Below, piece after piece: positions 42,970 to 50,024 of a stretch of DNA of 64,000 bases. The stretch lies in NCBI GenBank assembly GCA_038143065.1, contig JAYQLI010000035.1:672001-736000 (forward strand). The letters are read 5' to 3'. Source of the stretch: Rhodospirillales bacterium. Its GTDB lineage: Bacteria; Pseudomonadota; Alphaproteobacteria; Bin95. The position numbers and the translations under genes were made by a program. The notes under the pieces are model-generated. The model saw only the letters and a program-made list of their open reading frames with translations, was not told the DNA's origin and ran no database searches. Every line of letters starts with the position of its first letter. Position 1 is the stretch's first letter.

Positions 42970-43713
42970 ATGAAACGATTCATCGGAAAAGTTGCAATTG
43001 TTACAGGCGGAGGGAATGGGATTGGCGCTGCCATTGTCGAACGTTTATCCGATGAAGGCGCTTCAGTGCTAATTGTCGATAGGGAATTGGAATCAGCAAA
43101 AGAAATTGCTCAGAAAACAGGGGCCTCCGTCTTGGCGGGAGATGTATCTGAACCAAACACCGCGCAAAATGCCGTTTCAACGGCCCTCTCCAACTATGGC
43201 AAAGTTGATGTTGTAGTTTGTAATGCCGGAATAACAGACCGTGCCCCTTTCCTTGAAATGACACCAGAATTTTTTGAAAAAGTCATAGGCATAAACTTGA
43301 AGGGAGCATTTTATTTTGCCCAAGCGGCCGCGCGTCAAATGGTGGCTCAGGAAACTGGAGGCCGCATTATTGCGGTTGCTTCTAACTCAGGGATTTTTGG
43401 TGGCCGTGGACGCGCTGCCTACGGAGCAAGCAAGGCTGGTCTGATAAATTTGGTTCAGACAATGGCAATCGAACTTGCCGAGCATGGGATAAACGTCAAT
43501 GCAGTTGTACCAGGACCAACTAAGACGCGAGTCACTAAAACTGCAGATTTACCACCTAGCGTTCAAAGTAGGATGCCTTTGCATAGGTTTGGATCGCCTC
43601 AGGAAATTGCTGCGGTAGCCGCGTTTCTGGCATCTGATGACGCAAGCTTTGTAACAGGCCAGGCTTACGCTGCCGACGGTGGGTATACAACTGCTGGGAT
43701 GATGGAAGGTTAA
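42970..43713 (+). CDS. Short-chain dehydrogenase/reductase
   Basis: TGGGNGIG, CNAGI, YGASK and FVTGQ. Confidence 0.92.
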   Translation: MKRFIGKVAIVTGGGNGIGAAIVERLSDEGASVLIVDRELESAKEIAQKTGASVLAGDVSEPNTAQNAVSTALSNYGKVDVVVCNAGITDRAPFLEMTPEFFEKVIGINLKGAFYFAQAAARQMVAQETGGRIIAVASNSGIFGGRGRAAYGASKAGLINLVQTMAIELAEHGINVNAVVPGPTKTRVTKTADLPPSVQSRMPLHRFGSPQEIAAVAAFLASDDASFVTGQAYAADGGYTTAGMMEG

Positions 43714-43792
43714 GCTGCGCAATATTGTCAATTTTAGTCGTCTAACGCTTGGCTAGATGAGCATTTTCGGCTAAATAACCTCTCCCCGCGCA

Positions 43793-43955
43793 GATGGGTG
43801 CTGGAGCTGAAACGCCCCGACCCAAGGCTAGCGGTTCGATTATAGCATGATGGTGCCAGAAAAAGTGAGCGCCTCGCTATGTGGATCGCACGGGGAAACC
43901 GTGGGTTTCAGATTGCCCCATCCTTCTATATCTCAAGGGCTTACCCCTTGATTTT
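43793..43955 (+). ncRNA. Candidate structured RNA (cis-regulatory leader or sRNA) upstream of gltB
   Basis: Five nested helices and a side hairpin found by eye, followed by the hairpin TCAAGGG-CTTAC-CCCTTGA and TTTT. No family recognised. Confidence 0.5.
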
Positions 43956-44014
43956 GGCTGGCTGGGTTCTAGGAAATCTTAGTATTGAATTTTATTTTTT
44001 AAGGACGATGGCCT

Positions 44015-47000
44015 ATGTCTAAGACGCCTGAAGCCCAGGGGCTTTATGACCCCAGGAATGAGCATGACGCATGTGGTGTCGGCTTTGTGGCGGATGTCAA
44101 AGGCCGAAAATCCCATGAAATCGTTCAAGAAGGCTTAGAAATTCTTCTAAAGCTAGATCACAGAGGTGCTGTTGGCGCTGATCCACTAGCCGGCGATGGC
44201 GCAGGCCTTTTATCCCAAATTCCTGATCAGTTCTTCAGGAAGCAGCAACTTGGGTTCACACTCCTCCTGTCGGTTCATACGCAGTCGGCCAAATCTTTCT
44301 TCCTCAGGACAAAAAGAATTCTTTGGCGCTGGAAAAACTTGTTGAATCTCATTGTCGCGATGAGGGATTAACTGTGTTGGGATGGCGAGATGTCCCGGTC
44401 AATAGCGAAGGACTAGGGGTCTCCGTTATCAAGACTGAGCCAACAACAAAGCAAATCTTTGTAACCGCTGATTATGCAAAGGATGATCAGGATAAATTCG
44501 AGCGAAAAGTTTTTGTTGCTCGCAAGTCCGTTGCAAACAAAATTTCTGGTGAGAAAATGCCCGGATTTGAGGATTTTTATATTTCCTCGATGTCTTCGCG
44601 GACCATTACCTATAAAGGAATGCTACTCGCCGGTCAGGTAGGCACATATTTCCTAGATCTCCAAGATCCTGATTTCACCTCCGCCTTAGCTTTGGTGCAT
44701 CAGCGTTTCTCGACCAACACATTCCCCTCTTGGCGGCTTGCACATCCCTATCGCATGGTCTGCCATAATGGCGAGATAAATACCCTTCGCGGAAACGTAA
44801 ACTGGATGGCAGCCCGTAAGCACGCTATGACATCTGATTTACTAGGCAGCGATTTAGAAAAATTATGGCCAATAATTCCAGAAGGTCAGTCAGACACTGC
44901 TTGTTTTGATAATGCTCTCGAACTGCTTGTCATGGGTGGATATTCCCTGGCGCATGCTATGATGGTGTTAATTCCAGAGGCATGGTCCGGTAACCCTTTA
45001 ATGGATGAGAAAAGACGTGCGTTCTACGAGTACTACGCTGCGGCTATGGAACCATGGGATGGCCCTGCTGCAGTAGCATTCACGGATGGACGACAAATCG
45101 GAGCCACCTTGGATAGGAATGGTCTCCGTCCGGCGCGTTATCTCGTAACGACAGATGATAAAGTTGTGATGGCATCGGAGATTGGTGTCCTTGACATACC
45201 ACCTGAGAAAATAGCACGGCAGTGGCGTCTACAGCCTGGAAAAATGTTCCTCATTGATACGGATGAGGGAAGAATTATTGATGACGCAGAACTCAAAAAA
45301 GAGCTCTCCGAGGCTAGAAATTACAAGGAATTATTATCTAAGACCCAATTCAAACTGAGTGAATTAGCGGGGAGCAAGGTGTCTGCTCCTACCTCGAATA
45401 TTCCGCTGATCGATAGACAACAAGCGTTCGGATATTCGCAGGAAGACCTGAAATTTTTCTTGGAACCAATGGCGGCTGAGGGAGATGATCCAATTGGATC
45501 AATGGGTAAAGATACGCCAATTTCTGTGCTATCTGATAAATCCAAGCTGCTTTACACATATTTCAAGCAAAATTTTTCTCAGGTGACCAACCCACCAATC
45601 GACCCAATCAGGGAAGAATTGGTGATGTCCCTGGTATCTATGATTGGTCCCCGACCCAATTTGTTTAGCGTTGATGATGGTGACGATCCACATTGGCGTC
45701 TCGAAGTTAGCCAGCCAATTTTAACGAATGAGGATCTCGAAAAGATCCGTAACGTTACAGACCTTGTCGGTGACGCATTCCGCACTGCAACCCTTGATGC
45801 GTGCTGGCCAGCTGACCACGGCTTAGGGGGTATGGCAGCTGCAATTTCTCGCCTTCAAAGTGAAGCGGAAAAGGCCGTTCGTGACGACCATCAGAATATT
45901 TTAATTATTTCTGATCGCAGCATGAGCCAGAGCAGTATTCCAATACCTGCTCTCTTGGCTTGTTCAGCCGTTCATCATCACCTTATACGCAAGGGCTTAC
46001 GCACAGAAACTGGACTCGTAATTGAAACTGGTGAAGCGCGCGAAGTTCATCACATGTGTGTTCTGGCCGGATATGGCGCTGAAGCAATAAACCCCTACCT
46101 GGCATTTGACTCTATCCGTGACAGGCTGGACGAATTGCCAGAGGGAGTGAATGAAGAGAAAGCGTTTAAGAATTACATCAAAGCTTTAAACAAAGGCATG
46201 CTTAAAGTGATGTCCAAGATGGGCATCTCTACATATCAATCGTATTCTGGAGCTCAGATCTTTGATGCAATTGGGCTCTCTTCAGAGTTCATTGAAGAAT
46301 ACTTTACTGGAACGGCAACAACCGTTGAGGGCATTTCTGTAGAGGAAGTGGCTAGAGAAACAGTTGAACGCCACGCCCGTGCGTTTAGTGATGACCCAAC
46401 CCTGGAACGGATGCTTGAAGTTGGTGGGGAATACGCTTATCGCATGCGTGGAGAACGTCACGCTTGGAACCCAACAAGCGTGAGGGCTTTACAACATGCA
46501 GTTCGTGGAAATTTACCCAACGAATATAAGACTTTTGCAGACTCAATTAATGAGCAATCTCGCAATCTTCTTACTCTCCGTGGTTTATTTGACTTTAAAT
46601 GGTCTGAACAGCCAATCCCATTAGATGAGGTAGAACCCGCGTCTGAGATAGTTAAGCGGTTCTCTACCGGGGCAATGTCATTTGGATCCATCAGTCGAGA
46701 GGCGCACACTACCCTAGCAATTGCGATGAATCGGATGGGTGGTAGATCTAATACTGGCGAAGGCGGTGAAGAACCGGATCGATTTAAGCCCATGGCAAAC
46801 GGCGACAGTATGCGGAGCCGCATTAAGCAGGTCGCAAGTGGCCGATTTGGCGTCACAACAGAATACCTAGCTAACGCCGATGACATTCAGATAAAGATGG
46901 CGCAGGGCGCCAAGCCAGGTGAAGGCGGGCAGTTGCCCGGTCATAAGGTGGATCGGAATATTGCTGCAGTGCGCCATTCCACTCCAGGAGTTGGCCTGAT

Positions 47001-48605
47001 TTCACCCCCTCCTCATCATGATATTTACTCTATTGAGGACTTGGCGCAGCTCATTCATGATCTTAAGAATGCTAATCCAAGTGCCCGTATTAGTGTAAAA
47101 TTAGTGTCAGAGGTTGGGGTTGGCACGGTCGCAGCCGGTGTGTCGAAAGCGCGCTCAGATCATGTCACAATTTCAGGTTTTGAGGGCGGCACAGGCGCCA
47201 GTCCAATAACCTCCCTCACACACGCAGGGAGTCCTTGGGAAATTGGTCTAGCAGAAACGCACCAGACCCTCGTACTAAACGGTTTGCGCGGCAGGATTGC
47301 TGTACAGGTCGATGGTGGTCTGCGAACCGGTCGCGACGTAGTTATCGGTGCAATTCTGGGCGCAGACGAATTTGGTTTCTCAACAGCGCCATTGATTGCT
47401 ATGGGTTGTATAATGATGCGCAAATGCCATCTGAACACATGCCCAGTCGGCGTAGCAACTCAAAACCCTGAACTCCGAAAGAAGTTCACAGGTACGCCAG
47501 AAAACGTAATTAACTACTTCTTCTTCTTGGCTGAAGAGATGCGCGAGATTATGTCTAAGCTTGGCGTTCGCTCCATGAACGAACTGATTGGCGCTACTGA
47601 ATTCCTAGATATGCGCCAGGCAGTGGAACAGTGGAAGGCAGACGGCGTAGACCTTCGCCGCCTAATATTTAAGCCAACCGCTGCAGATGGAGTTGCTACT
47701 TACAACTGTGAGACCCAGGATCACGAACTAGATAAAGCCTTAGACCAAAAATTGATTGCGGCAGCAAAGCCGGCAATCGACAACGGGGAAGCTGTTGTAA
47801 TTAACACGGAAGTCAGAAATGTTAACCGGACAGTAGGAGCTATGTTGTCTGGCCAGCTCGCAAAGAAATACGGACACGCCGGGCTTCCAGAAGATACGGT
47901 AGCCATCAAGGCCTCTCAGGAGTTGGTGGGCAAAGCTTTGGAGCATTCCTAACTCGTGGTGTTTCTATCGAGCTAGAAGGTGTTGCGAATGACTATGTTG
48001 GAAAAGGACTTTCTGGGGGTCGCATAGCAATATTCCCACCTAAAAAATCACCTTACGCACCCAAAGAAAACATGATCATCGGCAATACTGTGCTTTACGG
48101 AGCGATTGAAGGTGAATGCTTCTTTAGAGGTGTAGCGGGCGAGCGGTTCTGCGTGCGGAACTCCGGAGCGTTTGCAGTAGTTGAGGGCGTAGGCGACCAC
48201 GGTTGTGAGTACATGACCGGCGGCTGTGTTGTGGTATTGGGTCCAACCGGTGTTAATTTCGCAGCCGGAATGTCAGGTGGCCTTGCTTATGTGCATGACC
48301 CTGATGGGATTTTTGCTGATCGTTGCAATAAAGCGATGGTATCACTTGAAAAAGTTGAACCTGCGAAAAATGCAATGACACCACACGACTTCAAAGGTGA
48401 CATGCTCGATCATGATGAAATGCGTCTTAAAACGTTGATTGAGCGCCACGCCCACTACACTGATAGTGATGTTGCTAAGTCATTACTCGCACGATGGGAA
48501 GAAGCTCGTGGGGAGTTCGTCAAGGTAATGCCAGACGACTACCGACGCGCTTTGTTAGAAATGAAGTCTGATCAGACCGAGACCAGGAGCGAAACCCATG
48601 GGTAA
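44015..48605 (+). CDS. gltB: Glutamate synthase large subunit (frameshifts near 44265 and 47915)
   Basis: [50 protein letters not shown] and [11 protein letters not shown]. Confidence 0.97.
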
Positions 48606-50024
48606 GCCAACAGGTTTCTTAGAACTAACTCGTTCCGAAAGAGGGTATCTGCCCGTTGAGGATCGACTAAAAAACTACAACGAATTCGTAGTTCCACTCT
48701 CTGAGAGCGAAGTTCAGAGCCAGGGGGCACGTTGTATGGATTGCGGAATACCGTTTTGCCACAACGGCTGCCCCGTAAATAATCAAATACCTGACTGGAA
48801 CGACCTTGTTTACGAAGGCGAATGGCAGAAGGCTTTAGTAAACCTGCACTCTACGAACAACTTTCCTGAATTTACTGGGAGAATATGCCCTGCTCCGTGC
48901 GAGGAGTCTTTGCGTTCTGAACATCAACGACAACCCAGTTGCTATTAAAACAATTGAATGCGCTGTCGTTGATAAAGGATTTGAAAACGGCTGGATTACA
49001 CCAGAAATTCCTGAACAGAAAACAGGCAAACGTATTGCGGTTATTGGATCAGGTCCAGCTGGCCTTGCAGCCTCTCAACAGTTAGCAAGAGCCGGTCATG
49101 ATGTCGTTTTATTTGAAAAGAATGATCGAATTGGCGGCTTACTACGTTACGGCATTCCTGACTTTAAAATGGAAAAGCATCTAATCGATCGGCGTATGGA
49201 ACAGATGTCTGCAGAAGGCGTGGAATTCCGAACAGGTGTTAATGTTGGCGTGGATATCAAAGTCGACGAACTAAAAGCCAGTTTTGATGCTGTTGTATTA
49301 ACGGGCGGAGCAGAAGCACCGAGAGACCTTCCGGTAGATGGAAGAAAACTAGACGGTGTTCATTTTGCCATGGAGTTTTTACCTCAGCAAAATAAGCGGG
49401 TTGCTGGCGATACCGTGCCTGATGATTTATCTATCTTGGCAGATGGTAAAAAAGTGCTCGTTATTGGCGGTGGTGATACCGGGTCCGATTGTATCGGAAC
49501 GTCCAATAGGCACGGTGCAACCGGCGTAACTCAGCTCGAAATTATGCCAAAACCACCCGTCCAAGAAGATAAACCGATGGTGTGGCCAGATTGGCCGATT
49601 AAACTACGCACGTCTTCTAGCCACGACGAAGGGGCTGAACGGAAGTTTGCCGCGTCCACCCTCGAATTCCAGGGTAAAGACGGTAAGGTAACAGGGGCAA
49701 CCATCTCCGAAGTAGAATGGACAAAAACTGGCCCGCAGCCCATCAAAGGGACAGAGCAACAAATTGATTGTGACCTTGTATTGCTTGCGATGGGCTTTGT
49801 TGGCCCGGTAAAACAGGGCCTAATTGAGGAATTAGGTGTTGATTTAGATCAGCGCGGCAATGTTTTTGCAGACGATTTTTCTTACAGAACTTCTGTAGAC
49901 AAGGTTTTTACCGCCGGTGACATGAGGCGTGGTCAATCCTAGTTGTTTGGGCCATACGTGAAGGACGGCAATGTGCTCGGGCCGTTGATGAGTACCTAAT
50001 GGGTACGTCTAAACTCCCCGTTAA
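48598..50024 (+). CDS. gltD: Glutamate synthase small subunit (frameshifts near 48910, 49940, 50020)
   Basis: [41 protein letters not shown] and [19 protein letters not shown]. Confidence 0.96.

Follow-up and report, generated by a model that had tools for sequence, protein, structure and literature searches.

The locus described here raises the question whether the spacer in front of a glutamate synthase operon encodes an RNA that regulates it. Glutamate synthase is one half of the main ammonium-assimilation cycle, and its control past the start of transcription is poorly known in alphaproteobacteria. In the 64,000-nt stretch of Rhodospirillales DNA that was analysed (the window), a short-chain dehydrogenase (SDR) gene at 42970–43713 is followed on the plus strand by gltB, the gene for the large subunit of glutamate synthase, which starts at 44015, and the spacer of 301 nt between them (43714–44014; ORF list and Pfam) contains, on the same strand, the stretch 43793–43955 in which the original prediction saw a multi-helix RNA with a terminator-like hairpin. 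The best reading of the locus is an undescribed, genus-restricted, structured leader of gltBD that acts in cis, and we put the chances that the flagged positions form the heart of such a 5' leader, acting on gltBD expression, at roughly even.

The gltB spacer and its putative promoter

The start codon of gltB, ATG at 44015, was set by alignment of gltB with its relatives and is preceded by the Shine-Dalgarno sequence AAGGA at 44001–05. A small plus-strand hairpin of five pairs (GGACG/UGUCU, 44003–07 with 44016–20), with 93.3% of the cells paired in three sequences, spans this start codon in the RNAalifold consensus.

A promoter-like element is located at 43748–43776 on the plus strand, with the -35 region CTTGGC (43748–53) and the -10 region CTAAAT (43771–76) spaced by 17 nucleotides, an arrangement that we take to resemble the alphaproteobacterial consensus CTTGAC-N17-CTATAT. 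GCTTGGC followed 17 nt downstream by a TA-rich hexamer is conserved in 9/9 leaders of the genus, and a matching CTTGC[CT]-N17 arrangement is found in 7/7 leaders of a sister genus, g2. The element at 43748–43776 was not called in a strict σ70 scan. The conserved block should constitute the gltB promoter with a start of transcription near 43783, so that a leader of about 230 nt (~43783–44014) would be transcribed from a conserved promoter just past the SDR gene. A σ54 promoter was rejected, the GG-GC spacing being 2 nt too short. The 20 nt directly upstream of the -35 region (43734–43753) are 90% identical between the window and G005, a related genome, which makes them the best-kept part of the spacer, and they may constitute an UP element or an activator site.

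Parts of the stretch also occur in 20 listed runs from 14 studies, six of which are RNA libraries. Contigs from 4/4 of the RNA libraries examined (four studies) cover the leader and join the SDR gene and gltB, namely one contig each of 43300–44247, 43597–44247, 43933–44700 and 43899–44018; they cross the terminator-like hairpin, but carry-over of DNA is possible and they show no transcript starts, ends or joints. Contig depth and break points vary by run and are not readable as transcription start or termination. The variants carried by these contigs are of the type found in G008, another related genome.

The reading frames downstream of the leader are broken in the window, gltB into 44015–44371, 44323–47952 and 48072–48605, and gltD into 48598–48948 and 49169–49942, whereas the relatives have single gltB frames of about 1530 aa. 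At position 44261/62 the contigs from 4/4 RNA libraries have one extra base, matching the reading frame of G005, which suggests either an indel of the assembly or a frameshift peculiar to this strain.

Conservation of the leader in the genus

By BLAST the spacer is present in only three of the 61 related genomes searched, its own among them, with an identity of 95% in G008 and 71% in G005. The gltB gene itself was found in eight of the nine other species of the genus (g1), and all eight share the SDR-gltB order with a spacer of about 300–350 nt. The nine leaders of the genus, where G000 is the window, were divided into group A (G000, G008 and G005), group B (G007) and group C (G001, G002, G003, G006 and G009). 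Three blocks are common to all nine, namely the promoter-like block, a pyrimidine-rich block just 3' of the promoter (TCCCCGCG in the window and TTCCTTTGCGG in group C), and the motif GGGG-N3/4-CCGYGGG, which in the window is the 14-nt GGGGAAACCGUGGG at 43892–43905 on the plus strand. As judged from an alignment of nine leaders, all three blocks are shown to be kept throughout the genus.

The 71% identity of the leader between G000 and G005 compares with third codon positions that are 40% identical for the SDR gene and 55% identical for gltB, and judged by this comparison the sequence of the gltB leader is shown to be under selection within the genus. Identity by phase between the same two leaders is 0.70, 0.68 and 0.65, and the leader is therefore without coding periodicity. 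No conserved upstream open reading frame (uORF) was found: the two in the window, of 18 and 34 codons, are truncated or missing in G008 and G005. The original claim of a conserved non-coding stretch before gltBD on the plus strand is thus borne out by selection without coding periodicity or a shared uORF.

Among 113 loci the motif is present in the gltB leader of every member of the genus, and outside the genus only L009 has it upstream of gltB, with two more matches in coding sequence. The leader is single-copy in the 4.63-Mb genome, and the three other occurrences of GGGG-N3/4-CCGYGGG, four in total, are all within long open frames, indicating neither a repeat nor a visible regulon. A scan of a genome collection with the N-terminus of GltB gave 80 loci with a related leader only in L004, where it is identical to the leader of G007. 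The best named match of this N-terminus is from an uncultured alphaproteobacterium and most of the others are from Rhizobiales, Caulobacterales and the like, which puts the genome of the window among the Alphaproteobacteria. A metagenome scan for a pattern of 23 letters taken from around the motif gave two loci, one identical to the leader of G005 and the other an unrelated chance match, and therefore no new leader diversity. A covariance model of the originally predicted fold, run with the filters off against 29 gltB loci (92,518 bases), matched only G000 with 204.6 bits and G005 with 157.3 bits, and the next-best match had 10.6 bits (E = 1.2). The model does not reach past group A, and the arguments for homology between the clades are therefore the promoter, the 5' block, the motif and the similar layout. 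As far as these scans reach, the distribution of the gltB leader is narrow, being limited to a single genus of marine alphaproteobacteria.

The sister genus g2 has a conserved gltB leader core of its own, about 150 nt before gltB, in L093–L098, L104, L008 and L010; the core is thus present in nine loci, eight found by pattern and L104 missed by the pattern but aligning. It consists of GUGUG.UCCG ... CGGACC.GCGCACACG, a C-rich hairpin and then GAUCGCG, and the hairpin sequences vary between the members in a compensatory manner. The g2 leader is like that of the window in having the same promoter type, the same gene, a length class of 240–266 nt and no Rfam match, but its core and helices (GUGUG..CCG with CGGA..CACAC, and the C-rich hairpin) are unrelated and the 14-nt motif is missing. 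It would appear to be another leader motif not described before, associated with the same gene and the same type of promoter. In another genus, g3 (L101–L103, L105, L109 and L111), gltB has a short leader of about 100 nt behind the -10 region CTATAT, which starts with UUUCCUUUGGGCG and resembles the 5' block of group C of genus g1. A pyrimidine-rich 5' end may thus be a feature of gltB mRNAs in the whole family.

Predicted folds of the leader

In the original prediction seven pairs of complementary segments were arranged as nested helices P1 to P5, a side hairpin P6 creating a three-way junction, and a terminator-like hairpin. All seven pairs are present where they were placed, as checked against the sequence and the pair list, and the G-U pairs, which had been said to work on the plus strand, do so on that strand only. 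The minimum free energy (MFE) structure of 43785–43960 reproduces these helices at -62.6 kcal/mol, but its stability is within chance: dinucleotide shuffles have a mean of -56.64 (sd 4.32), which gives z = -1.38 with 21 of 200 shuffles at least as stable, and the minus strand has z = -1.23. Judged on energy alone, the originally proposed structure is not beyond chance.

When the whole leader (43783–44024) is folded, the pairing probability is about 0.02 for P1, about 0.02 for P2 and about 0.05 for P6, and 0.78–0.99 for P3, P4, P5 and the terminator-like hairpin. On the alignment of the three group A sequences the original fold has 89.7% of the cells paired and two compensatory pairs, and its score is reached by 114 of 500 shuffles. 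P3 and P5 are 100% kept in these three sequences by six one-sided changes of the G-U type, P1 and P2 break in relatives, and in G005 P2 loses four pairs and P4 three. The proposal of a structured RNA therefore stands for the central long hairpin (43831–43889) and the hairpin at 43933–43951 but not for the outer helices P1 and P2 or the side hairpin P6, and with these three replaced by better-supported pairings the three-way-junction model was abandoned.

The RNAalifold consensus of the three closest leaders over 43781–44020 instead has two domains joined at the 14-nt motif. It contains 67 pairs with 95.5% of the cells paired and six compensatory changes, and its score is reached by one of 500 shuffles, group A being three sequences of which two are 95% alike, and the consensus folds being scored on the same sequences from which they were derived. 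Slid controls of the consensus are 28–50% paired. The one-sided changes retain G-U pairs where the opposite strand would have C-A. Pairing of plus-strand RNA with covariation is by this alignment supported for the leader, from few and related sequences. Three alternative folds of the leader in the window differ from one another by no more than 3 kcal/mol, and the energy z-scores of single leaders are -1.66 for G000 (13 of 200 shuffles), -3.56 for G005, which beats all 200, -1.40 for G001 and -0.69 for G007.

Domain I (43783–43896) is predicted to be closed by helix H1, in which the pyrimidine-rich UCCCC at the 5' end (43783–43787) pairs with GGGGA at 43892–96, and to contain hairpin Pa and the long hairpin 43831–89. 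H1 pairs in 3/3 sequences with one C-to-U change giving U-G, and has a probability of 0.81–0.94 in the window, with the requirement that transcription, predicted to start near 43783, does so at or before that position. Hairpin Pa (43795–43824, plus strand; 43795–99, 43802–04 and 43806–07 with 43814–15, 43817–19 and 43820–24) has ten pairs, two compensatory changes (UA to CG and UG to AU), 96.7% of the cells paired and a probability of 0.84–0.97; it occupies the 5' strand of P1, and most of the 5' strand of P2 falls in its loop. The long irregular hairpin 43831–43889 on the plus strand, which corresponds to P3-P4-P5, is present in every fold computed, and its helices 4 and 5 together have 21 pairs with seven one-sided changes of the G-U type and two compensatory ones, 95.8% and 97.4% of the cells being paired.

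The motif GGGGAAACCGUGGG would connect the two domains, its GGGGA closing domain I and its GGG opening domain II. The latter (43903–43979, plus strand) is predicted to be a long irregular hairpin with the terminator-like stem at its tip, where helix Pb encloses helix H7 and the apical hairpin. Pb is the closing helix, GGGUUUC at 43903–09 with GAAAUCU at 43973–79 on the plus strand, and its seven pairs are 100% kept with two one-sided changes; in the window alone its probability is only 0.09–0.11. H7 (43917–23 with 43960–66 and 43926–28 with 43955–57, plus strand) has ten pairs with two compensatory changes (AU to GC and CG to GC), one U-C mismatch in the window and a window probability of 0.67–0.95, and it uses the 3' strand of P1 and carries the terminator-like hairpin 43933–51 at its tip.

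In group A other segments pair better with the 5' block than the motif does, 29 such windows in G000, 60 in G008 and 105 in G005, and no consistent anti-Shine-Dalgarno segment was found in this group. A pairing of 43900–43909 (CGUGGGUU/CGUGGGUUUC) with 44007–44017 (GGCCUAUG), which includes the start codon, has a probability of about 0.6 in the window and about 0.2 in G008; it is impossible in G005 and was dropped. A G-quadruplex was considered for the leader and rejected. Position 43891 is missing in one contig each of two RNA libraries (X18 and X19), and its loss would abolish the ACGG/CCGU side hairpin of the original prediction and leave the 14-nt motif intact.

The leaders of group C differ in sequence from those of group A and have a similar two-domain layout. 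The five have their own fold with 82 pairs, 94.4% of the cells paired and five compensatory changes, and 0 of 500 shuffles reach its score. Here GCGGUUA.CC, the 5' block, is paired with the motif's GG.UAACCGC and closes a domain with two inner hairpins, and the GGG of the motif opens the second domain (GGGUGA with UCACCC). For the first 22 bases of the leader, no better partner than the motif was found among about 200–230 windows in G007, G006, G001, G009 and G002, and in G003 the motif is not the best. UCCUU at the 5' end in group C is predicted to pair with the Shine-Dalgarno sequence AAGGA, a pairing that is invariant and therefore carries no covariation information.

The terminator-like hairpin, UCAAGGG-CUUAC-CCCUUGA followed by UUUU at 43933–43955 on the plus strand, was recovered by a scan with seven pairs, four of them G-C, and a loop of 5, and 43933–43951 with the tail TTTTGGCTGG fits the signature of an intrinsic terminator, a hairpin followed by a U tract. 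One such site was found against a shuffle mean of 0.6 (sd 0.8), which is about chance. The stem is 90.5% kept in the three group A sequences, G005 has a GAUUUC tail in place of the U tract, and no terminator-like site was called on the plus strand in the leaders of G005, G007 or G001. With a count at chance level, no site in relatives and a stem that forms the tip of H7, intrinsic termination was not taken as a conserved read-out, contrary to the role in which the hairpin had been put forward.

Alternative explanations and known systems

No regulatory read-out was found to be conserved across the genus. If the flagged stretch is the core of a cis-acting leader, its fold would modulate expression, in the clade of the window most likely by way of domain II, through the elongation or stability of the transcript, and in the other clade most likely by controlling how well ribosomes reach the Shine-Dalgarno sequence. 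A signal of nitrogen status might act on the fold, and the sensor could be a protein, a small RNA or a metabolite.

A true riboswitch, in which domain I or the joint at the 14-nt motif binds glutamine, glutamate or 2-oxoglutarate and alters gltBD expression, appears unlikely to us. In its favour, the leader of this operon, which is central to nitrogen assimilation, is long, selected and structured, and it has a three-way junction as well as a short motif that does not vary. Other lineages, in the account that PMC8632094 gives of them, have glutamine riboswitches or candidate riboswitches upstream of genes for glutamate synthase; having no Rfam match, this one would be a new class. Unlike in known aptamers, however, the sequence and helices of domain I are unconserved between the clades except for 14 nt, and in group C the motif is almost wholly paired with the 5' block and does not form a conserved unpaired pocket; there is moreover no shared expression platform, and the leader is confined to one genus. 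More doubtful still is the wider proposal that the leader is the first of a new class of nitrogen-metabolite riboswitches in marine Alphaproteobacteria, in which the GGGG-N3-CCGYGGG joint and the 5' pyrimidine block would be a switching helix that reads glutamine or 2-oxoglutarate and sets GOGAT synthesis, with the leader of the sister genus as an independently evolved analogue. The terminator-like site suggests another possibility, an attenuator or a small RNA of about 170 nt derived from the 5'-UTR, where 43933–51 with its UUUU would stop most transcripts unless an alternative fold forms. The site is called in the window, its stem is kept in G008 and G005, and the stretch before the Shine-Dalgarno sequence is A/U-rich in this clade, so that there is no obvious translational block. 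On the other hand, the number of sites equals chance (1 against 0.6 expected) with just four U, G005 has the tail GAUUUC, the plus strands of G005, G007 and G001 lack the site, and the stem sits atop the covarying H7, which needs sequence past the U tract; no competing antiterminator pairing above 4 bp was seen by eye, and the contigs of four RNA libraries span the site. The chance that such an element explains the leader is accordingly slim.

The conserved blocks might also act as DNA: a transcription factor could have one operator near the start site and another at the motif, with RNA pairing being incidental. The two best-conserved blocks are in fact mutually inverted repeats, the motif of most relatives contains the palindrome CCGCGG, and the 20 nt upstream of the -35 region are 90% identical between G000 and G005. 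Such operators would leave unexplained the covarying hairpins between and after the blocks and the changes that preserve G-U pairs, the motif occurs between genes only this once in the genome and hence has no regulon, and an operator at about +110 is unusual, all of which makes this reading improbable. Little credence is likewise given to a spacer without specific function, folding as its composition allows and conserved only as promoter and ribosome-binding region. The z-scores of the window, G001 and G007 lie within the range of shuffles and the independent sequences are few, but for most of the 300 nt the identity far exceeds that of synonymous sites, two clades show compensatory changes, and the spacer length and layout are kept throughout the genus.

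A selected, folded gltB leader in this genus and a different one in the neighbouring genus on the same promoter type suggest that control of GOGAT at the RNA level may be common in the family and fast-evolving. The gltB leaders are concrete candidates for nitrogen-responsive RNA regulation, to which a modest weight is given for now.

The original prediction had recognised no known family in the element, and this agrees with Rfam 15, which at the gathering thresholds has no match in the 64-kb window. With E up to 10 the region 43650–44100 gave only HOTAIRM1_3 (E = 3) and sR36 (E = 9.1), both at chance level, and with E up to 1 there was no match in ten related gltB loci. The glnA RNA, the Downstream-peptide RNA, ykkC/ppGpp, 6S RNA and T-box are thus ruled out as far as the Rfam models reach, and the loose likeness to 6S RNA that had been mentioned has no support from Rfam. 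The leader differs from the glutamine riboswitches (glnA RNA and Downstream-peptide) in matching neither model, and is presumably three to four times longer than the known glutamine riboswitch aptamer. A full-text search of the literature found no described RNA element on an alphaproteobacterial gltB.

Like the classical terminator/antiterminator and leader-peptide attenuators of amino-acid operons, the region combines a long leader behind a promoter with a hairpin and U tract that lie about 60 nt upstream of the start codon, but it has no conserved leader peptide, no conserved U tract and no clear antiterminator. A leader-peptide attenuator was rejected because the uORFs are unconserved and the substitutions have no 3-nt periodicity. 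An intrinsic-terminator attenuator lacks support in that no terminator is called in the leaders of G005, G007 or G001 and no competing pairing above 4 bp is visible by eye. ANTAR target RNAs consist of two hairpins, each with a hexaloop whose first base is A and whose fourth is G; no such hexaloop hairpin is found in the three group A leaders and none is shared genus-wide. A search for PF03861 (ANTAR) had no match in G000, which is uninformative as 0 of 14 control genomes matched either.

Riboswitch-like RNAs have been placed on the amt genes of Pelagibacter, and not on gltB, in what PMC3870248 says of them. Glutamine riboswitches are sometimes associated with glutamate synthase genes, as noted in PMC8632094, and the same account contains one of the closest known systems, the gltD motif RNA. 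This candidate riboswitch from Selenomonadales and Veillonellales has 95 representatives, and glutamine has been suggested as its ligand and a cis action proposed (PMC8632094). The leader of the window is not a gltD motif RNA, its gene being gltB and its host an alphaproteobacterium and not one of the Negativicutes. As the gltD motif is presented in PMC8632094, both are structured RNAs with a promoter before them, directly upstream of a glutamate synthase gene, but the gltD motif belongs to another phylum, precedes gltD instead of gltB, and is followed by a hairpin that occludes the ribosome binding site. With nine species against the 95 representatives given there (PMC8632094), the leader of the window is set apart from the gltD motif by its host and its gene, and not by a comparison of consensus.
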